Shown here: positions 5,399 through 49,734 of the stretch, one piece after another | How the letters are laid out: each line of letters begins with the position of its first letter | Position numbering within the stretch: position 1 is the first letter of the stretch | Assembly (NCBI GenBank): GCA_963765495.1 | Contig: CAVXWP010000016.1 | Span: 96,001-160,000, forward strand | Reading direction: 5' to 3' | DNA length: 64,000 nucleotides | DNA from: Blastocatellia bacterium | GTDB lineage: Bacteria; Acidobacteriota; Blastocatellia; UBA7656 | Program-made: the position numbers and the translations under genes | The notes under the pieces: generated by a model | Databases searched by the model: none | Told to the model about the DNA's origin: nothing | The model's input: the letters and a program-made list of their open reading frames with translations, nothing else

Positions 5399-6688
5399 AT
5401 GAGCACAACGCGCCGTTCTTTTACTGGCCATGATTTTTTGCTGCTGGTTATAGCCTTTTTTGGAATATTCGTTTACGGGCTCCTGACCGCGCTTCCGGGT
5501 TCGGTCCTGCCTACGCTTGAACGCCACAAGTTTCTGCCCGACGATGCCGTAGCCGGGACATTCCTCTTCATCAACGCAATCGGCGCGGTAGTGGCCTATA
5601 TGGTGAGCGGGCCTATTATTGACAGGGTCGGAAAGAAGTTTGCGCTCGCGGCAGGTTCGCTTCTGGTCATCGGGTCGATGGTTGGGTTTTGGGCGACCGT
5701 CGCAAATGTGGAACCCGCCGCCGCGCGCGTTTTGATCTTCGCCTGCTCGCTCGTTTTGGGACTGGGCGCAAATGCCATTGTGAGCGCGGGTCACGCGCTT
5801 GTGGCAGACGTTGCGGACGCGGGGCGGAATTCGGCGCTAAACCTGCTCGACGTATGCTTCGGGCTCGGGCTTATGACACTGCCTTTTATGATCTCTAAGT
5901 TGGATTGGAGCGAGCGACTGGGGATCGTTTTTCTCACGCTCGCCGTGGCGACGATAGTCCTGCTCGCGCTGATTTTGATGCCGAGTTTTCCCCAACCCAC
6001 GCATCCTGAGTCCTTCCCTCTAAACGAAGCCAAAGACCTTTTCAGCAGCCTCCCTTTCTGGTTGCTGGCAATTGCGCTTTTTATGTATGTGGGAACAGAG
6101 GTAGCTGTGGGCAAATGGGTAGTGACATTTATCCAGCGAGACGGGCGGCTGCTTGAGGGGTTTGGGGGCAACCAGACGAGCGCAGCCGATTTCGCGCTGC
6201 TGACGCTTTCGTTTTTTGGCTTTTCTTTAATCATCGGGCGATTGCTGTCGAGTTTCCTGCTCGGCGTGATAAAGATGAACAGCTACGTGCTGCTCACGCT
6301 CGGCTCGCTTGTCACAAGCGTAGGGCTTGCGATTGCTTTCACGGCTTCGAGCGCGGGCGCGGTCAGATGGGCGGTCTTTTTCTCAGGGATTGGGATGGGG
6401 CCGATCTTCCCGACATCGGTAGGGCTTGCATCGGTGATCGTGCCTAAAATCGCGGGCACCGCTATGAGTTGGGTGATGGGGATCGGATTTGCCGGATTGC
6501 TTGTTATCCCGCCCTCGGTCGGCTACATCTCAAGCGCCGTAGGCGGCGAAGCGGGCGACGTGCGAACGGGTTTACTTGCCGTGCTCGCGGCTTCGATAGT
6601 GATGCTACTGCTTCACATCACGCTCGCCCTGCGCCAGCGCCGTTACCCTGCTGCTGTCTCTGAAATGAAACCGGCACAGGCGGAATGA
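5399..6688 (+). CDS. MFS transporter (FucP/TsgA-like)
   Basis: About 12 hydrophobic segments, [10 protein letters not shown] motif [16 protein letters not shown]; RBS gaggagg. Confidence 0.9.
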
Positions 6689-6701
6689 GAAAGGAGCGCG
6701 T

Positions 6702-7727
6702 ATGCGTCTCGGATTAAATTTTGGCTACTGGAGTTCGGGTCCATCCGACAACGTAGCCGTGGCTCAGGAGGCCGAACGGCTGGGTTATCACTCGCTGTGG
6801 ACGGCTGAAGCCTACGGGTCGGACGCGGTAACTCCGCTCACGTGGCTTGCGGCGCGAACCGAGCGCATAAACGTAGGCACGGCGATAATGCAGATGCCTG
6901 CGCGGACTCCGGCAATGACCGCGATGACGGCGGCCACGCTCGATCTTTTGACCGGAGGCCGCTTCCTGCTCGGCATAGGAGCATCGGGCCCGCAGGTGGT
7001 CGAGGGCTGGCACGGCGTCGTCTACGGCAAGCCGCTTGCCCGCGCGCGCGAGTACGTCGAGATCATTAGAACGGTGCTGAAACGCGACCGCCCGCTCGAA
7101 CACCACGGCGAGTATTACGACATCCCCGTCGAAGGCGGGACGGGGCTTGGGAAACCGCTCAAGCTTATCGTTCATCCATTGCGCCCGAGCATTCCGATTT
7201 ATCTGGCAGCGATAGGGCCAAAGAACGTGGCGCTGGCGGCTGAAATCGCCGATGGCTGGCTGCCGGTCTTCTTCTCTCCTCACCGGATGAATATATTTCG
7301 TGAATCGCTCGAAGAGGGCTTCACCCGCGCGGGTGAAGAAAAAGACCGCGCCCGATTCGACATAGCGCCGACGGTCAGTATAGTTGTGGGCGATGACACC
7401 GATTCTTGCCGCGCCCAGATAAAGCCTCATCTTGCGCTTTACATTGGAGGGATGGGAGCGCGCGGTAAGAATTTCTATAACGACCTTGCGTGCCGTTACG
7501 GCTATGAAGAGGCGGCTGCAAAGATTCAAGAATTGTACCTTTCGGGAAAGAAAAACGAAGCCATCGCCGCCGTGCCCGATGAGCTTGTAGATGAAGTGGC
7601 GCTGTGCGGGCCGCGCGACCGCATTGCCGACAAGCTGGGCGCGTGGCGCGAAGCCGGGGTGACTACGATGATTTGCGCCGTAAACTCGCTTGAGGCCGTC
7701 CGCGTAATGGCCGAGCTCGCCAGTTAA
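6702..7727 (+). CDS. LLM class oxidoreductase, probably F420-dependent
   Basis: [47 protein letters not shown]. Confidence 0.88.
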
Positions 7728-44169: not shown

Positions 44170-44892
44170 TCAGATGATAACGCCCGCCTCTTCTTCATCC
44201 TGTATGCGGAGCAGGTCGAGCAGCAATCCCATGTTGCTTGTGGCCTGCACCTGGCGTTCGTATTCGACTTCGACTCTCTTAAACTCGAAGGTGCCTTCGG
44301 TGGCGCCCAGAAATCTGGTGATCGCTTCTACGCCCGTATCCGTGGCTGAACGGCCTCCTGCGATCAATCCCTCATTGAAATGTATCTCGCCCTTTGTGGC
44401 GGGAGATGTTATCACGAGCGCCCCGGTCAACCGGCTGTTTTCGATGATCTGAATCACATCGAACAGACTGACGAGCGCAAAATTCCCCGTCAAAATGATT
44501 TCAGATGTGGAAGGCAAGAGGGCCGCTTCCTGCAAATTATTGCTCGCTTCGATCACTTCTTCGGCAGAAGGCAGTGGCTTGCCATCGACAAAATTCTCGA
44601 TCACTTTTCGATGGTAGGGCTTTAAATCGAGAAAATGTATCCCCATGCCGACCTGCGGCATACCATAACGCACTTCGCCCGTCACTACGATAGGCACATC
44701 TCGAACCGCGAATTTCATTGTCAGCTTCGTGCCGACTTTATAACTGGTCATCGAATCAATGAAGACTCCGGTCGCACTCAGATCGTTTATCCGAGTGTTG
44801 AGACGAGAGACGTTGTCGCCTTCGCACTGCACCTCGCATACATAGCTGATTCGCTTTGCTTCCCGTCTCTCTTTACCGCGCCTTATCATCAT
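44170..44892 (-). CDS. PilZ + DUF4388 (PatA_N-like) domain protein
   Basis: ERREAKR (RxxxR) and DLSATG (DxSxxG); C-terminal LTGNF...SLFDVIQ...TGAL...GEIHFNEG...GTFEF...LLLDLLRIQDE. Confidence 0.88.
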   Translation of the reverse strand: MMIRRGKERREAKRISYVCEVQCEGDNVSRLNTRINDLSATGVFIDSMTSYKVGTKLTMKFAVRDVPIVVTGEVRYGMPQVGMGIHFLDLKPYHRKVIENFVDGKPLPSAEEVIEASNNLQEAALLPSTSEIILTGNFALVSLFDVIQIIENSRLTGALVITSPATKGEIHFNEGLIAGGRSATDTGVEAITRFLGATEGTFEFKRVEVEYERQVQATSNMGLLLDLLRIQDEEEAGVII

Positions 44893-45452
44893 TCATCATC
44901 CTCGACGCTTGCCCTGAGCGAGCGGAGCTTGCGCATGATCAAATCGTAGTCGAAGCCGCGCCGCGCCAGATGGTCGAACATACGCTTTTCGCCGTTGCGG
45001 TCCGTGGGACGGCCGTGTGTGCGAATGCGCTTCTCTATGGCTCGTTCAATCAATGTCTCTTCTTCCACCTCGTCAAAGACTATATCGAGCGCCTCATCTA
45101 TCCTCTCGCGAGGAACCTTCTTTCCGGCCAACTCGCGAGCCAGCCGCGATCTCCCCACAGGCTTTGTGCTGACGCGATAGCTGGCGTAATTCCGGGCATA
45201 CTGGCTGTCGTTTATGAGCCCCTGCTCTTTCAATCGGGCCATGCACTGATCAACAAGATCAGGATCGGCCCAGGGCTTTGCCAGCAATCGCTCTCGCAAT
45301 AGACGCTCGCTAAACGGACGCGAGGCCAGCATCTTTAAGGCCGCCCCCATGGTGCGCTTCCCCGCACGCTCCCTGCTCGCTTCTCCCCCTGCTTGCGTCT
45401 CTCCTCGCTCGCTCGCAGCAGACCCCTCTGCTCGCGCGCGAGCGCGGCTCAT
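44889..45452 (-). CDS. recX: Regulatory protein RecX
   Basis: ALKMLASRPFSERLLRERL, GLINDSQYA, RELAGKKV, LARRGF; ATGA overlaps with both neighbours. Confidence 0.9.
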   Translation of the reverse strand: MSRARARAEGSAASERGETQAGGEASRERAGKRTMGAALKMLASRPFSERLLRERLLAKPWADPDLVDQCMARLKEQGLINDSQYARNYASYRVSTKPVGRSRLARELAGKKVPRERIDEALDIVFDEVEEETLIERAIEKRIRTHGRPTDRNGEKRMFDHLARRGFDYDLIMRKLRSLRASVEDDE

Positions 45453-46660
45453 CTGGTCACTTGCTCTGTTCCTTCGAGTAGCCAATTTACAAACTGTTTC
45501 GTTTCGGGCTTGCCCGATTCCGTTGACCCGGGCCGCCTTCTATTTGAGCGCTCCATGTCCTCTCGCGCCTGCTCGGATACCGATCTGACCCCTGAAACCC
45601 GCAGCTTGAACTCGTCGGGGTTTGTAGCCCCGGCAAGCGCTTCGTCGTATGTTATCAATCCGCGAGAATACAAATCAAACAGCGACTGGTCGAAGGTCTG
45701 CATGCCGTATTGCGAAGTGCCCTGGGCTATCGCATCGCGTATGAGCGATGTCTTTTCGGCGTGGATGATACAGTCGCGTATGTATGGAGTGACGACCAGA
45801 ACCTCGACGGCCGGAACCCGCCCCTGAATAGGCTCTGCTGCCCTGACCAGTCGCATGGAGATCACCGCCTTGAGCACGCTCGCAAGCTGTAGACGGATCG
45901 CGCGCTGCTGATGAGGCGGGAATACCGAAACTATTCGGTTGATGGTCTCGGTCGCATCGAGCGTGTGCAGCGTAGAGAGCACGAGATGGCCGGTCTCGGC
46001 TGCCGTAAGCGCCGTCTCTATCGTTTCGTAATCGCGCATTTCGCCTACCAGAATCACGTCCGGGTCCTGGCGCAGGGCGCTACGCAGAGCTTCTGAAAAA
46101 CTGCGCGTGTCTACGTCCACTTCGCGCTGATTCACATAAGATTTCTTGTCGCGGTGAAGAAACTCTATAGGGTCTTCGATGGTGACGATATGACCCGTGC
46201 GTATGCGATTTATATAATCAATCATCGCGGCGAGCGTCGTTGACTTGCCCGATCCCGTAGTTCCCGTGACCAGTATCAGGCCCCGGGTTTCATCGGCAAT
46301 CTTATCGATGACCCCCGGCAAGCGAAGCTCTTCTATCGTGCGCACAGTCGTCGGGATGACCCTCAAGACCATGCCGACCGTCCCGCGCTGCTGAAATATG
46401 TTGCAACGAAACCGCCCCAATCCCGACACCCCGTACGCGATATCGATCTCGGAATTTTCGGTAAAGCGTTGCTTTTGCCGGTTGTTCATTATCGAGAATG
46501 CCATATTGAGCGTGTCTTCGCCCGCAAGTCTCTGCGCCTCTACCATAGGCTGCAACTCGCCGTTTACGCGAACGAAGGGAAAACTTCCGGCTTTTATATG
46601 CAGGTCGGATGCGCCTTTGCTGCATGCTATTGTCAGCAATTGGTCAATGCTCGGTGCCAT
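45449..46660 (-). CDS. pilT: Type IV pilus retraction ATPase
   Basis: ASDLH, GTTGSGKST, TIEDPIE, LRQDPDVILVGEMRD, TGHLVLSTLH, AIRLQL, GMQTFDQ. Confidence 0.95.
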   Translation of the reverse strand: MAPSIDQLLTIACSKGASDLHIKAGSFPFVRVNGELQPMVEAQRLAGEDTLNMAFSIMNNRQKQRFTENSEIDIAYGVSGLGRFRCNIFQQRGTVGMVLRVIPTTVRTIEELRLPGVIDKIADETRGLILVTGTTGSGKSTTLAAMIDYINRIRTGHIVTIEDPIEFLHRDKKSYVNQREVDVDTRSFSEALRSALRQDPDVILVGEMRDYETIETALTAAETGHLVLSTLHTLDATETINRIVSVFPPHQQRAIRLQLASVLKAVISMRLVRAAEPIQGRVPAVEVLVVTPYIRDCIIHAEKTSLIRDAIAQGTSQYGMQTFDQSLFDLYSRGLITYDEALAGATNPDEFKLRVSGVRSVSEQAREDMERSNRRRPGSTESGKPETKQFVNWLLEGTEQVTR

Positions 46661-46858: not shown

Positions 46859-47023
46859 GGGGGTCAGGGGCCGGGGGCCGGGGGCCGGTGTTGTTGAATG
46901 TTGCATTGAATCGGTTAAATCGCAGTTTCCGCGCCCGGATTCATCTAAGGCCATTATGTTTCGTTATAACCAGCGTCTTCTCAAATTCATAACCGACCCC
47001 CGACCCCCGACCCCCGGCCCCTA
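46859..47023. repeat. Inverted heptamer element GGGGCCG/CGACCCC (family D)
   Basis: ggggtca-ggggccg-ggggccg-ggggccg ... cgacccc x3-cggcccc-ta; ends on the TAG stop of the HD-GYP fusion. Confidence 0.88.
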
Positions 47024-49108
47024 TTTTTTGGCGCGGTCGGCGATGATTATGTAGTTATGCAATCCGCCCGTCACTTCGGTCAAATCCTTTGAGTAAGTCG
47101 CGCGCACGGGCCGGTGCTCTTTTATAAGCTCGCTGATGTCGCGAGCCGAGGCCAACCCGACTTCCTGGTATTCGATTGCCCACGTGGGAAGGTGCGCGGC
47201 CGAGCGTAACAATCGATCAATCATCGCCAGGTATGATTGTTTGGATTGGGGAACGCTCGAAAGCTTTGCCAGATCGTCAGCGCAAGGCTCATCCGCGCCA
47301 CGCACCCAGCAATCGCGCCAGTCTGATCTCGTCCCCGAACCGGCTCGCTCGGCGTGCGCGGACGGCAGATTGAGATAGAGCAGGTCGGCCCGCGTGCGGC
47401 TGACAAACTCTTCGACCGGCACGTTATAGCCACGATTGTGAGGATGGCCCGGCGGGCCGCTCAAAACGCGACCGGCCAGCCGCCAGAATATCGTCGTAAG
47501 CGGGCGTTTCAATTCCCGCGTCTCTTCATTGAACGACATCGCGTAATCGCCCGTCTGAAGTCCAAGCACAAGCGCCTGCGCCCGCAATGTCTCGTCTTCA
47601 ATCCTCTCGATTGAGCGGCGGAGATTATCGAGCCACCACGCATCAATTTCGCCAAACCAGCGCCTCAGACCGGGATTGCTCAAATTGACGCCGGGCACGT
47701 AAACATCTTCGAGCAGACGTGTGATCTGCTGTTCGTCGAGCCAGCTTTTCGATTCGAGCATCGCTCGCGTAGCCGCAGCCGCCCAGGGGCGCGGATCGTT
47801 CGACAATATGAGCTTGCCCCAGCCTTTCAAATACCAGTCGAGCTTCGCCCATCCGCTAAAGGCTATGGCAATCGAGCGGAACTCGATCTGACGCAGGACG
47901 CTGGCTTCAAACCCGAGCAGAGCCTTCTTGTTGTAGCGGCTCCTCGTCCATCCCTTCCACCTGTCAGACTCATCTCCGGCAAGCTCTTTCGCACCTCGGC
48001 GGGCAAGCAATAGCTCAACGGGAGGCAGTTTTTCCGGGCGTGGACCGGCAGAGACTATGCGAGGGCTGGCCGCACTTTCTTCTATGCTTTCTTCCGCGCT
48101 TTCTTCCGTCACGGGCGCTTGTTCCCCGTTGGGCGCTGCTTCCGCTGCGGGCGCTTCCTCTACGACAGGCGACTGCTCCCGGGCGGGCGGGACCTCTGTT
48201 CCCACCTCTTCATATGCAACCTCGGCGGGCTGATCGCCCGAGGGCGTTTCCCCCTGTTTAGCGGTCGGTTGCTCCTGCTGAAAAGCGGGGATCTCCATTC
48301 CGGTAAGGGTCTTGGCGTATTGCGGGCGAAAGCCTTCTTCCTCGTTTGCGGCAGTTTCAGACGATCCTTCGGCAGGAGGCGCAGGCCCGGCATCAGGGTC
48401 GGGTCCAGGTTCGGTTTCAAGTTCGGTTCTAAATTCGGCGGCAGGTTCAACCTTTGCTTCCGGGGCAGCCTGTTCAGGCTGTTCCGGCGTAAATGATAGA
48501 GGTTCCGCCGGTTCGTCTTTTTTCGCCTGCTCTCGCAAATCGTCAAGCAAAGCTACCAGCGCTTGAACGACATAGGGATCGCATTCGATGCCTGCCGACG
48601 ATAGAAGCGTTTCTTTGGCTTCGTCGTCTGTGAGCGCGGCGCGGTATGTTCTATCGGATATGAGCGCGCTGTAAAGCTCGACTGCGCGCAATATTCGCGC
48701 GCCTATGGGGATGTCTTCGAAGGCCAGCATATCGGGATATCCCGATCCGTTCCACCATTCATGATGCCATCTTACAAGCAATTGGGCCTGTCGCGAGGCT
48801 TCTCTTTTGGCCATCTGCTGTTCGCCTATGATGGGATGTCGCCACAGGTCTATGCGTTCTTCAAAGGTGAGAGGGCCGGGCGAAGCGAGATATGGAGGCG
48901 TCATCGCGTACAGCCCTATGTCGACCAGCAGCGCAGCTTCGGCCACGGCGTGAACATCAGGCTCAGTAAGCCCGAATCTCCGGGCCAGGTGCGCAGCCAG
49001 TTCGGCCATCACACGCGAATGCGGGCGGGTGTATCTTTTGTAGCTGTCGATTCGTTCGGCGAGCCTGCTGATTATCTCTTCCCGAGTCTTACCCTTGGCC
49101 GTCTCCAC
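47021..49108 (-). CDS. Fusion of degenerate HD-GYP domain, acidic/Pro linker and degenerate DNA adenine methyltransferase-like domain
   Basis: N-terminus: HSRVM, ALLVDIG, HPIIG, HHEWWNGSGYP, IPIGARI, DRTYR. C-terminus: YNKKALL...IAFSG...LKGWGK..LSND, WLDNLR, ADLLYLNLP, WAIEY, NYIIIA. GTG start with aggagg RBS. Confidence 0.8.
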   Translation of the reverse strand: METAKGKTREEIISRLAERIDSYKRYTRPHSRVMAELAAHLARRFGLTEPDVHAVAEAALLVDIGLYAMTPPYLASPGPLTFEERIDLWRHPIIGEQQMAKREASRQAQLLVRWHHEWWNGSGYPDMLAFEDIPIGARILRAVELYSALISDRTYRAALTDDEAKETLLSSAGIECDPYVVQALVALLDDLREQAKKDEPAEPLSFTPEQPEQAAPEAKVEPAAEFRTELETEPGPDPDAGPAPPAEGSSETAANEEEGFRPQYAKTLTGMEIPAFQQEQPTAKQGETPSGDQPAEVAYEEVGTEVPPAREQSPVVEEAPAAEAAPNGEQAPVTEESAEESIEESAASPRIVSAGPRPEKLPPVELLLARRGAKELAGDESDRWKGWTRSRYNKKALLGFEASVLRQIEFRSIAIAFSGWAKLDWYLKGWGKLILSNDPRPWAAAATRAMLESKSWLDEQQITRLLEDVYVPGVNLSNPGLRRWFGEIDAWWLDNLRRSIERIEDETLRAQALVLGLQTGDYAMSFNEETRELKRPLTTIFWRLAGRVLSGPPGHPHNRGYNVPVEEFVSRTRADLLYLNLPSAHAERAGSGTRSDWRDCWVRGADEPCADDLAKLSSVPQSKQSYLAMIDRLLRSAAHLPTWAIEYQEVGLASARDISELIKEHRPVRATYSKDLTEVTGGLHNYIIIADRAKK

Positions 49109-49120
49109 TCTGCCTCCTGA

Positions 49121-49200: not shown

Positions 49201-49392
49201 TCACGCGGCCATCTCTACCGAGGCGCTAACGGGTCGCGCACGGAGATTGAAACAGGAGTTGCACCAGCCGTAAAGGATTCCGTCAATAAGGTGATACGCT
49301 ACCGTATCCTCTGCTGAAACCGTCCGATGGCATTGTTTACATTCCCACGAATCGTTTTGAGTAGTCGCTGCTTGTTCGAGCACTGTTGCCAT
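49201..49392 (-). CDS. Small CxxC...CxxC zinc-binding protein
   Basis: 63 aa: WECKQC...WCNSCF; purine-rich RBS aaggga. Confidence 0.65.
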   Translation of the reverse strand: MATVLEQAATTQNDSWECKQCHRTVSAEDTVAYHLIDGILYGWCNSCFNLRARPVSASVEMAA

Positions 49393-49547: not shown

Positions 49548-49734
49548 GGGGGCCGGGGGCCAGGGGTCAGGGGCCGGGGGTCAGCAGGGGCTAATCTTGA
49601 AGCCTGGCTAAATCATATTCGCGTAGATTCGCCGCATCCGTGGCCTATTGCCGTTTACCCATCCACGTGCTTCGGTTTAATCAAAATTTTTCTGAACTCA
49701 CCCCCGGCCCCTGGCCCCCGGCCCCCGGCCCCTA
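49548..49734. repeat. Inverted heptamer element (family D)
   Basis: gggg(c/t)c(a/g) x5 ... cccccgg-cccctgg-cccccgg-cccccgg-ccccta; ends on the TAG stop of the helicase. Confidence 0.88.

Follow-up and report, generated by a model that had tools for sequence, protein, structure and literature searches.

We analysed a 64,000-nucleotide stretch of DNA from a Blastocatellia bacterium (contig CAVXWP010000016.1 of assembly GCA_963765495.1, positions 96,001 to 160,000), referred to here as the window, and in it a gene that joins a domain of cyclic di-GMP (c-di-GMP) signaling to one with the fold of a DNA methylase. Its product (P0001) has three parts: an HD-GYP domain at residues 1-196, a linker at residues 197-384, and a compact alpha/beta domain at residues 385-695. 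We have named this last domain, of 311 amino acids (aa), DamL. The open reading frame (ORF) is uninterrupted over all 695 codons, its N-terminus agrees with those of its homologues in an alignment of the fused proteins, and an identical protein (P0138) is present in the public protein set. In minus-strand order the window encodes a UvrD-type helicase, a 63-aa ORF with a CxxC...CxxC pattern (orf63), the HD-GYP-DamL gene, a PilT-like ATPase, RecX and a PilZ-DUF4388 protein; the features of the locus are collected in Table 1.

A preliminary description of the window had divided the protein into an HD-GYP domain and an adenine methylase-like domain, and had taken both to be catalytically dead. The parsing into domains proved right, and every string quoted in its support lies where it had been placed: in the HD-GYP domain, LLVDIG (60-65), HHEWWNGSGYP (115-125), IPIGARI (133-139), VELYS (143-147) and DRTYR (152-156); in DamL, YNKKALL (392-398), IAFSG (415-419), LKGWGKLILSND (427-438) and ADLLYLNLPS (574-583).

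A search with the whole protein returned 387 matches; among the 120 listed, identity ranges from 50% to 100%, the latter being the window's own protein. Where the source names them, the relatives among the matches listed are proteins of Blastocatellia or other Acidobacteriota metagenome-assembled genomes (MAGs), annotated as "HD domain-containing phosphohydrolase" or "hypothetical protein." Counts out of 120 refer throughout to these 120 fused relatives. In a sister clade, the split clade, the two parts are encoded by separate genes; counts out of 36 refer to its DamL proteins, and counts out of 30 to their HD-GYP partners.

Table 1. Features of the HD-GYP-DamL locus, in window coordinates (position 1 is the first nucleotide of the window)
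Feature	Coordinates	Strand	Basis
Whole gene: 695-aa HD-GYP / linker / DamL protein (P0001)	47021..49108	-	GTG start at 49108, stop 47021-47023
Shine-Dalgarno-like AGGAGG	49113..49118	-	5 nucleotides (nt) upstream of the GTG start; read from the sequence
HD-GYP domain, residues 1-196	48521..49108	-	Pfam HD_5, Foldseek, residue mapping
Codon GTC (V62), at the position expected for the HD-dyad His	48923..48925	-	Residue 62: His in 116, Leu in 3 and Val in 1 of the 120
HHEWWNGSGYP, residues 115-125: two M2 ligands and GYP loop, core of the predicted DamL interface	48734..48766	-	H115, H116, E117, G123, Y124 and P125 each in 120/120
Acidic Glu/Ala/Pro-rich disordered linker, residues 197-384	47957..48520	-	Composition, model confidence, length variation, dN/dS
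DamL: Dam-like Rossmann methyltransferase-fold domain without catalytic motif, residues 385-695	47024..47956	-	AlphaFold2 model, Foldseek, profile matches, motif conservation
Motif-I remnant I415-A-F-S-G419, after strand beta1	47852..47866	-	Strand 412-415 in model
N437-D438, motif-II acidic position at the end of beta2	47795..47800	-	Strand 433-437 in model
G520-D-Y-A-M-S-F526, helical-insert motif, centre of the predicted HD-GYP contact	47531..47551	-	Conservation, lowest-error contacts
N580-L-P-S583, at the motif-IV position after beta4 (Dam: D-P-P-Y)	47360..47371	-	Strand 576-580; colinear, non-significant hhalign alignment
orf63, 63-aa ORF with two CxxC pairs	49201..49392	-	92 nt upstream of the HD-GYP-DamL gene

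The two domains and the linker

The assignment of the N-terminus to the HD-GYP family is far beyond chance: Pfam HD_5 matches residues 20-178 with an expectation (E) value of 1.4e-26, and Pfam HD matches with E 2.5e-6. An AlphaFold2 (AF2) model of the full-length protein reached a predicted local distance difference test (pLDDT) score of 79 and a predicted template modeling (pTM) score of 0.78, despite about 140 disordered residues. The top Foldseek match of this model was DvhD (9rbz; E 2e-8, template modeling (TM) score 0.77 by target, 32% identity). The further HD-GYP matches comprised the binuclear PA4781 (4r8z, E 1.4e-7) and the trinuclear PmGH (4mcw, E 1.1e-6), at 29-33% identity, together with Bd1817 and V-cGAP3 (5z7c); 3tm8 was also listed.

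Residue roles were mapped from parts of two sources, bioRxiv 10.1101/2021.11.05.467447 (Galperin and Chou) and PMC3188283 (Lovering et al.). The window protein keeps H30, D63, H91, H115, H116 and the tyrosine of the GYP motif, and H30, H91, H115 and H116 are each found in 119-120 of the 120 relatives. Because Y26 sits at the position of PmGH E185, where trinuclear enzymes carry Glu, the domain is probably of the binuclear type. The RxY[K/R] motif, tied to c-di-GMP specificity in section 6 of bioRxiv 10.1101/2021.11.05.467447, is intact as R153-T154-Y155-R156, and its R153, Y155 and R156 are present in 120/120. Other elements depart from the consensus. N120 occupies the position where the HHExxDGxGYP consensus, as given in part of PMC3188283, has Asp; the KPG motif, described in the bioRxiv source as binding the second guanine, reads S76-P-G78 in the window, with its Lys position variable across 12 aligned fused proteins; and in the alignment of fused proteins the Lys after HDIG is missing from the window protein.

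The HD dyad itself reads V62-D63. According to PMC3188283, the His of this dyad ligates metal M1; the Asp bridges the metals. Among the 120 fused relatives, His-less forms are confined to the window protein (V62) and its three nearest relatives (P0139-P0141, L62); these four proteins share two other changes, and their HD-GYP domains are still 82-95% identical. The His is also present in 29 of the 30 split-clade partners. At the last Asp ligand the window protein has Glu144, which may still ligate metal; the position is Glu in 119/120 and Asp in 28/30 of the split clade. The earlier view of VELYS as a lost metal site therefore gives way to a conservative, clade-wide exchange of Asp for Glu, and the view of both domains as dead does not describe the family, with the HD His retained in 116/120 and 29/30. 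Judged from these residues, a dead HD-GYP domain would fit a small sub-lineage rather than the family, and even there one ligand is gone; in most of the family the domain should be catalytically competent. In the split clade we also observed a second, independent single-ligand change: HQE replaces HHE, altering the second M2 histidine, in 13 of the 30 HD-GYP partners.

The linker is strongly biased in composition, with 37 Glu, 30 Ala and 28 Pro among the 189 residues from 196 to 384 and an isoelectric point (pI) of 4.2. In the full-length model pLDDT falls below 50 over residues 214-350. Linker length ranges from 34 to 232 aa among relatives and is roughly 150-190 aa in the window protein. Several homologues (P0143, P0146, P0164, P0229, P0244 and P0287) are labelled "ribosomal protein L12E/L44/L45/RPP1/RPP2" by one source, probably an annotation artefact of this acidic Ala/Glu/Pro tract.

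For DamL, an AF2 model built on 24 family members reached pLDDT 86 and pTM 0.84. Foldseek placed E. coli Dam first (4rtj_A; E 4.3e-5, TM-score 0.44 by query and 0.55 by target), followed by other Dam entries, Mcbe1 (7m6b), DpnM and T4 Dam, and then by generic small-molecule methyltransferases. The order of strands and helices in both models is that of a class I Rossmann methyltransferase fold with the alpha-type arrangement of elements. The methylase-like fold claimed for the C-terminus is thus borne out, by the confidence of the model and by Dam as its top match; a failure to model as a Rossmann methyltransferase fold had been named as the outcome that would speak against the claim.

Type II methyltransferase hidden Markov models (HMMs) of PADLOC matched 19 of the 24 family members (best E 6.7e-13) and 17 of the 24 (best E 1.4e-14). 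On one of these, PDLC03261 (643 positions), E. coli Dam matches positions 24-283 and DamL positions 315-544; because the two fall on different halves, the model describes a tandem methylase, and DamL resembles its second module. Of the five rows listed from the ESM Atlas, the first three were unnamed clusters of ~310-aa Acidobacteriota proteins, and two carry PF02086 (26% and 100% of members). No Pfam or NCBIfam family matched DamL in the window protein at the gathering threshold; PF02086 gave no match there and matched 1 of the 24 family members, at E 0.043. PDB sequence searches with DamL returned chance-level matches only (best E 0.18, to ribosomal protein S2), and a profile of the broad DamL alignment found none. 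In a second profile search of the protein set, the matches listed were close relatives only, with no canonical D12 enzymes among them.

Because the hhalign alignment with Dam is not significant, our motif-by-motif mapping rests on fold, strand positions and colinearity. That alignment is colinear, setting A-D-L-L-Y-L-N-L-P-S of DamL opposite V-V-Y-C-D-P-P-Y of Dam, and G-D-Y-A-M-S-F opposite G-E-F-N-V-P-F. The Dam sequences used for comparison were those of E. coli K-12 and nine phage records; F35, G37 and D181-P-P-Y184 are invariant in all 10, and D54 is likewise invariant. Motif I, F-x-G-x-G in Dam, reads F417-S-G419-W-A in the window and is reduced to F-x-[G/S/N] among the 120 fused relatives, with no second Gly. 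Position 419 is Gly in 67, Ser in 28 and Asn in 23 of these, and Gly in 36/36 split-clade proteins. The acidic residue of motif II is retained (N437 in 119/120, D438 in 118/120, 34/36 in the split clade), its equivalence to Dam D54 being taken from strand position, with no significant alignment. The insert motif is nearly invariant: G520, Y522, S525 and F526 are found in 120/120 and D521 in 119/120, with 33-35/36 in the split clade. Motif IV has become x-[L/S]-P-x in the fused proteins, with P582 in 120/120, S, N, R, T or D at position 580 and never an aromatic residue at 583; in the split clade it is mostly R-L-P-R, with the P582 equivalent in 36/36 and a fourth position that is again never aromatic. 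The reported loss of DPPY therefore extends well beyond the N-L-P-S of the window, an aromatic fourth residue occurring in 0/120 and 0/36.

In Dam, the beta-hairpin that reads DNA and recognizes GATC lies in the target-recognition insert. Both AF2 models of DamL have helices only in the corresponding region, between beta2 and residue 559, and the non-significant hhalign alignment puts an 11-column gap there. Because motifs IV and I are degraded and the models show helices only in the insert, DamL is, as far as such features can tell, very unlikely to be an N6-adenine DNA methylase; with the DPPY loop lost and the DNA-recognition hairpin apparently absent, it would therefore be a pseudo-methylase. 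The pI of DamL is 8.95 in the window protein, with a median of 8.3 in the fused clade and 6.4 in the broad family. Distant DamL-like proteins (P0101, P0111, P0116, P0117 and P0119; 18-23% identity) carry x-P-P-x or x-L-P-x at motif IV, then G-[F/Y] four residues on; from these motifs, they may be intermediates between true methylases and DamL.

Pairing, selection and the predicted complex

With the C-terminal part of the protein as query, 1.84 billion representative proteins were scanned in full, which gave 136 matches at E <= 1e-3. All 11 matches with a length of 528 aa or more have HD_5 at their N-terminus, and forms of ~300-320 aa have no Pfam domain. A search with a narrower alignment across 185,579 genomes, one for each species, gave 599 candidate stretches, of which 513 encoded a relative, and from these we kept 80 Acidobacteriota loci, on which all locus counts rest. 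An HD-GYP domain is encoded directly upstream of DamL, on the same strand, in 76 of the 80; in the remaining 4, the sequence available upstream is shorter than 350 nt.

Two clades can be told apart among the loci. In the closer, Blastocatellia-type clade (39 loci, L001-L039; 56-74% identity), 35 are fused, 3 are unclear and 1 is cut by a contig end. In the Pyrinomonadaceae-type clade (41 loci, L040-L080; 38-45% identity), 27 have two genes and 1 is fused, with 10 unclear and 3 cut. The split pairs, called with our own simple ORF caller, consist of genes for ~225 aa and ~310 aa separated by gaps of -47 to +297 nt, six of them overlapping by 4 nt. This is a classic fusion-or-operon pattern, and the conservation of the fusion that the preliminary description had named as a check is seen as a pairing in 76/80 loci across the two clades. 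The ratio of nonsynonymous to synonymous substitution rates (dN/dS), estimated from eight independent close fused pairs, lies at 0.05-0.28 in HD-GYP, at 0.08-0.15 in DamL and at 0.31-0.65 in the linker. Purifying selection acts on both domains. A fusion unique to this assembly and under relaxed selection, which had been named as a sign of recent decay, is thus not what we find: 35 of 39 loci are fused, and dN/dS is close to 0.1.

Two loci, L022 and L024, are titled "uncultured Clostridia bacterium." Their DamL copies are 60-68% identical and their neighbors are of the Blastocatellia type (both have orf63, a desaturase and a ROK kinase; only L022 has the UvrD helicase), and the Clostridia label of these MAGs looks doubtful.

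The complex between residues 1-196 and residues 385-695 was predicted with a 93-row alignment for each part, alongside three controls. The runs scored 0.87, 0.87 and 0.88 (ipSAE), compared with 0.01 for the best control; of 80 solved complexes 58 reach the score mark, as do 2 of 110 mismatched pairs, calibration counts that hold here only roughly. The runs agree in at least 96% of contacts, with a partner pLDDT of at least 84. No PDB chain among the Foldseek matches of the full-length model spans both domains, so the score is unlikely to be due to memory of a solved complex.

On the HD-GYP side, the predicted interface comprises the GYP loop (119-122, 124-135) and the last helices (169-183). 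On the DamL side, it comprises residues 386-400, the motif-I-adjacent segment 420-429, the insert 518-552, residues 589-594 and the 676-681 hairpin. The insert contacts are centred on G-D-Y-x-x-S-F and R-P-L-T-T, and the contacts with lowest error join residues 520-526 to 119-120 and 172-178. Conservation is somewhat higher at the interface than elsewhere (Mann-Whitney p 0.044 and 0.028). According to the abstract of PMC3188283 (Lovering et al.), the GYP region is exposed at the surface and accessible to partners. If the colinear alignment with Dam is right, the segment that follows the DNA-reading hairpin in Dam would in these models have been turned into a contact with HD-GYP.

Genomic surroundings

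Several neighboring genes recur. In the fused clade, tblastn finds orf63 in 26 of 39 loci, in one of them far upstream; it finds no copy in the split-clade loci. Pfam gives orf63 no significant match; it may be a zinc-ribbon operon partner. The UvrD helicase recurs in 10 of the 39 fused-clade loci. Of the 41 split-clade loci, 33 have a DUF4388-DnaJ-TPR gene immediately upstream, on the same strand, and 20 have a HAMP-PP2C phosphatase downstream.

We considered and rejected several candidates for a larger system. The PilT-like, RecX and PilZ-DUF4388 genes downstream in the window occur in 0 of the 80 loci, within fetched flanks of up to 8 kb on each side. A PATAN partner shared across the clades was likewise discarded: 35 split-clade loci and 0 fused-clade loci have the DUF4388-DnaJ-TPR gene, and the window lacks it. 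We also rejected a mobile or defence context, PADLOC matches being limited to methyltransferase models and the neighbors being of housekeeping or signaling type. Among the recurrent neighbors identified, there were no restriction, DNA-methylation, repair or defence genes. We note separately that DUF4388 (PATAN) proteins recur near the module, in the window (44170-46660, minus strand) as the PilZ-DUF4388 gene three genes downstream and in L040 at 5537-7156; the window PilZ-DUF4388 protein and the split-clade DUF4388-DnaJ-TPR protein are not detectably homologous by tblastn.

Two elements of ~165-185 nt, at 46860-47021 and 49549-49732 of the window, lie in the intergenic regions that flank the unit of orf63 and HD-GYP-DamL. 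Both are bounded by inverted arrays of G-rich heptads (GGGGNCN), whose arms are 23-39 nt long, 90-92% complementary and 111-127 nt apart. The two elements have the same orientation and share a direct repeat of 70 nt (70% identity). In the 64-kb window the heptad pattern is found 10 times, each time at one of the four arms, against 0.04 occurrences expected. Rfam gave no match in the window, these elements included. They may be elements resembling miniature inverted-repeat transposable elements or repetitive extragenic palindromes, large hairpins, or tracts prone to form G-quadruplexes.

Interpretation and alternatives

The explanation that we favor, and to which we give an even chance, is that HD-GYP-DamL is a c-di-GMP phosphodiesterase or binder with an obligate, non-catalytic partner domain derived from Dam. 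In this explanation, DamL descends from a Dam-like (alpha-class, type II) DNA adenine methyltransferase. The gene would encode a two-part c-di-GMP signaling module, specific to Acidobacteriota of the Blastocatellia class. Its HD-GYP part, probably binuclear, appears to keep the residues known for c-di-GMP binding, from which we infer that c-di-GMP is the ligand. HD-GYP and DamL would bind each other in the cell as a fixed complex, held together by a disordered acidic linker in one clade and, in its sister clade, encoded by two genes that abut. According to the model, the N-terminal segment of DamL, its helical insert (GDYxxSF...RPLTT) and its beta6-beta7 hairpin are predicted to clamp the GYP loop and the last HD-GYP helices, beside the substrate cleft. 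DamL could thereby serve as a regulatory or adaptor subunit that gates access to the active site or sets phosphodiesterase activity, perhaps by responding to an adenosine-containing ligand bound in the vestigial S-adenosylmethionine (AdoMet) pocket. A DamL that regulates or serves an active phosphodiesterase fits most of the family better than does a dead sensor that controls DamL.

The window copy and its three nearest relatives would be a variant of this arrangement, acting through the same complex as a c-di-GMP binder impaired in hydrolysis. This is the most likely reading of the window copy because the His that ligates M1 is replaced by Val or Leu. Judging from that replacement, the sub-lineage has probably lost or weakened hydrolysis, and by analogy with DvhD it may act as a binder. 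DvhD, in the part of PMC13090378 that describes it, proves the precedent invoked in the preliminary description, that a degenerate HD-GYP domain can be a c-di-GMP receptor.

Known systems resemble this one in parts. PA4781 (4r8z) and PmGH (4mcw) share the fold, H30, D63, H91, H115, H116, GYP and RxYR, and the Tyr at the PmGH E185 position is as in binuclear types. They differ in that the window protein has Val at the HD histidine, its clade has Glu where PmGH has D305, and neither the KPG lysine nor the Lys after HDIG is present. The arrangement differs too: here HD-GYP is N-terminal and its partner is C-terminal or in a separate gene, whereas HD-GYP domains are typically C-terminal behind sensor domains and rarely stand alone (section 16 of bioRxiv 10.1101/2021.11.05.467447). 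DvhD of Desulfovibrio vulgaris (9rbz) is the best structural match of the window HD-GYP domain and binds c-di-GMP without cleaving it; the relevant part of PMC13090378 describes a PAS/HD-GYP membrane receptor of a Lap-like system in which HD has become SQ and HH has become MN, with no metal. Here, in contrast, one ligand is lost, only in a four-member sub-lineage, and the partner is a methylase-fold domain. For RpfG-type HD-GYP proteins, the GYP region has also been proposed as a docking surface (part of PMC3188283; section 16 of bioRxiv 10.1101/2021.11.05.467447); their known partners are GGDEF or EAL proteins in dynamic contact, whereas here a pseudo-methylase is hard-wired by fusion or adjacency.

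E. coli Dam, T4 Dam and DpnM (D12 class, alpha type) share the Rossmann fold with DamL, and the PADLOC profile PDLC03261 is common to DamL and Dam. The order of elements is alike, from an N-terminal segment through beta1 and the motif-I remnant, beta2 ending in Asn-Asp and the helical insert to beta4 and motif IV. DamL differs from Dam in having no DPPY, F-x-G/S/N in place of FxGxG, models without the insert beta-hairpin and no PF02086 match; it is also accompanied by HD-GYP (76/80 loci) and has no restriction or repair context. METTL14 and DNMT3L are methyltransferase-fold subunits without a catalytic motif that are kept for binding or regulation, and their partner is an active methyltransferase paralogue. 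DamL differs from both in partnering a phosphodiesterase of a different fold.

A number of observations weigh against the explanation we favor. The TM-scores between DamL and Dam (0.44, 0.55) are modest, and the hhalign profile of DamL is not significant against E. coli Dam (E 0.14) or against the 10-sequence Dam profile (E 0.27, probability < 1%). The complex score used our own, unvalidated alignments, and its calibration is correspondingly rough. A single change of the M1 His to Val is no proof of lost activity: Bd1817 binds metals through non-consensus ligands (described in part of PMC3188283). HQE stands in place of HHE in 13/30 split-clade partners, so ligand plasticity may be normal in the family. 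Finally, the strictly conserved N437, D438, W597, R598, Q621, S622, R666, Y672, K674 and D675 lie outside the predicted interface. DamL must therefore do more than dock and could still be an enzyme; these residues could belong to a further site, either a pocket of the adenosine or AdoMet type or a new active site.

Two other readings of DamL are both unlikely in our estimate. One carries the regulatory idea further: DamL would be a new kind of sensor subunit for c-di-GMP signaling, a pseudo-methylase that has kept a pocket of the adenosine or AdoMet/S-adenosylhomocysteine (AdoHcy) type and clamps the GYP loop. Hydrolysis of c-di-GMP would then be gated by the state of the methyl cycle or by another adenosine ligand. 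The other, for which we would also set the probability low, is that DamL is still an AdoMet-dependent methyltransferase with a non-canonical site, acting on a small molecule, protein or RNA rather than DNA and coupled to the c-di-GMP phosphodiesterase. Strong purifying selection (dN/dS 0.08-0.15) is consistent with an enzyme, as are the motif-II N437-D438 (118-119/120 and 34/36), G419 in 36/36 split relatives, and the invariant polar residues off the interface (W597-R598, Q621-S622-K623, Y672-S-K-D675). Its motifs argue otherwise: the motif-I Gly is present in only 67/120 of the fused clade and the second Gly of FxGxG is absent; the motif-I Gly and motif-II Asp are each missing in several broad-family members; motif IV has no conserved acidic or amide residue (S/N/R/T/D variable) and no aromatic; and no Pfam methyltransferase family matches at the gathering threshold.

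In the model of the preliminary description, c-di-GMP is sensed by a dead HD-GYP domain, which in turn controls a DNA binder or methylation reader with a methylase fold; the latter would act as a regulator of the transcription or chromatin type. Several observations speak for this model. The HD His is lost there and in its three nearest relatives, the rest of the domain being 82-95% identical; the c-di-GMP-binding motifs are retained; DvhD shows that a degenerate HD-GYP domain can be a pure receptor (part of PMC13090378); DamL has a pI of 8.95 in the window and a fused-clade median of 8.3; and its nearest fold is a DNA methylase. With the HD dyad intact in 116/120 fused and 29/30 split proteins, however, sensing without hydrolysis cannot be the ancestral logic of the family. 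The output half of the proposal is not supported. The models show helices only where Dam has its hairpin, with an 11-residue gap there in the non-significant alignment; the segment equivalent to Dam G-x-F-N-V-P-F-G is predicted to contact HD-GYP, not DNA; the broad-family median pI is 6.4; and there is no helix-turn-helix domain and no restriction or methyl-directed gene among the recurrent neighbors. We consider this reading unlikely.

A composite nucleotide site, in which the former adenine/AdoMet pocket of DamL helps to recognize an adenine-containing dinucleotide such as 3'3'-cyclic GMP-AMP (3'3'-cGAMP) or pApG, instead of or besides c-di-GMP, seems quite improbable. The predicted interface does abut the substrate cleft, including Y124, residues 82, 86 and 93 near the KPG equivalent, and DamL residues 420, 422 and 426, and the KPG lysine is not conserved (S76-P-G78 in the window, variable in relatives). 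Moreover, some HD-GYP proteins hydrolyse cGAMP (part of bioRxiv 10.1101/2021.11.05.467447), and V-cGAP3 (5z7c) is among the fold matches. Against this stands the intact RxY[K/R] motif, linked to c-di-GMP, with R156 in 120/120. Least probable of all, to the point that we reject it, is the reading in which an HD-GYP gene became joined by chance to a dying methylase gene, through recent decay or an artefact of assembly. V62 and T154, which occur only in the window at otherwise invariant positions, would suit such an origin, but it is refuted by the pairing in 76/80 loci and two clades, the identical protein on record (P0138), the continuous ORF in 35/39 loci and dN/dS values of ~0.1 in both domains.

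We thus return to a c-di-GMP phosphodiesterase or binder with a fixed, methylase-derived partner as the best account of the locus. An architecture of HD-GYP and a Dam-like domain was not found described in the full-text literature searched. The words "methyltransferase" and "Acidobacteri" have 0 occurrences in the main text of the HD-GYP architecture review, whose supplementary tables might list the architecture. What is new, then, is a known signaling domain with an undescribed, hard-wired partner domain.

Among c-di-GMP phosphodiesterases, the HD-GYP class is the less well understood, and the docking role of the GYP loop had lacked a hard-wired partner. The HD-GYP-DamL family would supply one, either fused or in an operon pair, throughout a bacterial class. 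It also offers an interface open to testing and variants that form a series in nature (His-containing, His-less and HQE), and a domain left blank by public annotation gains a name and a fold. The family would represent a DNA-methylase fold recruited into second-messenger signaling after the loss of its chemistry. If DamL is indeed a sensor subunit, the GYP loop would have in it a defined, hard-wired protein partner, in which a former DNA-recognition surface has been turned into a protein-protein interface.

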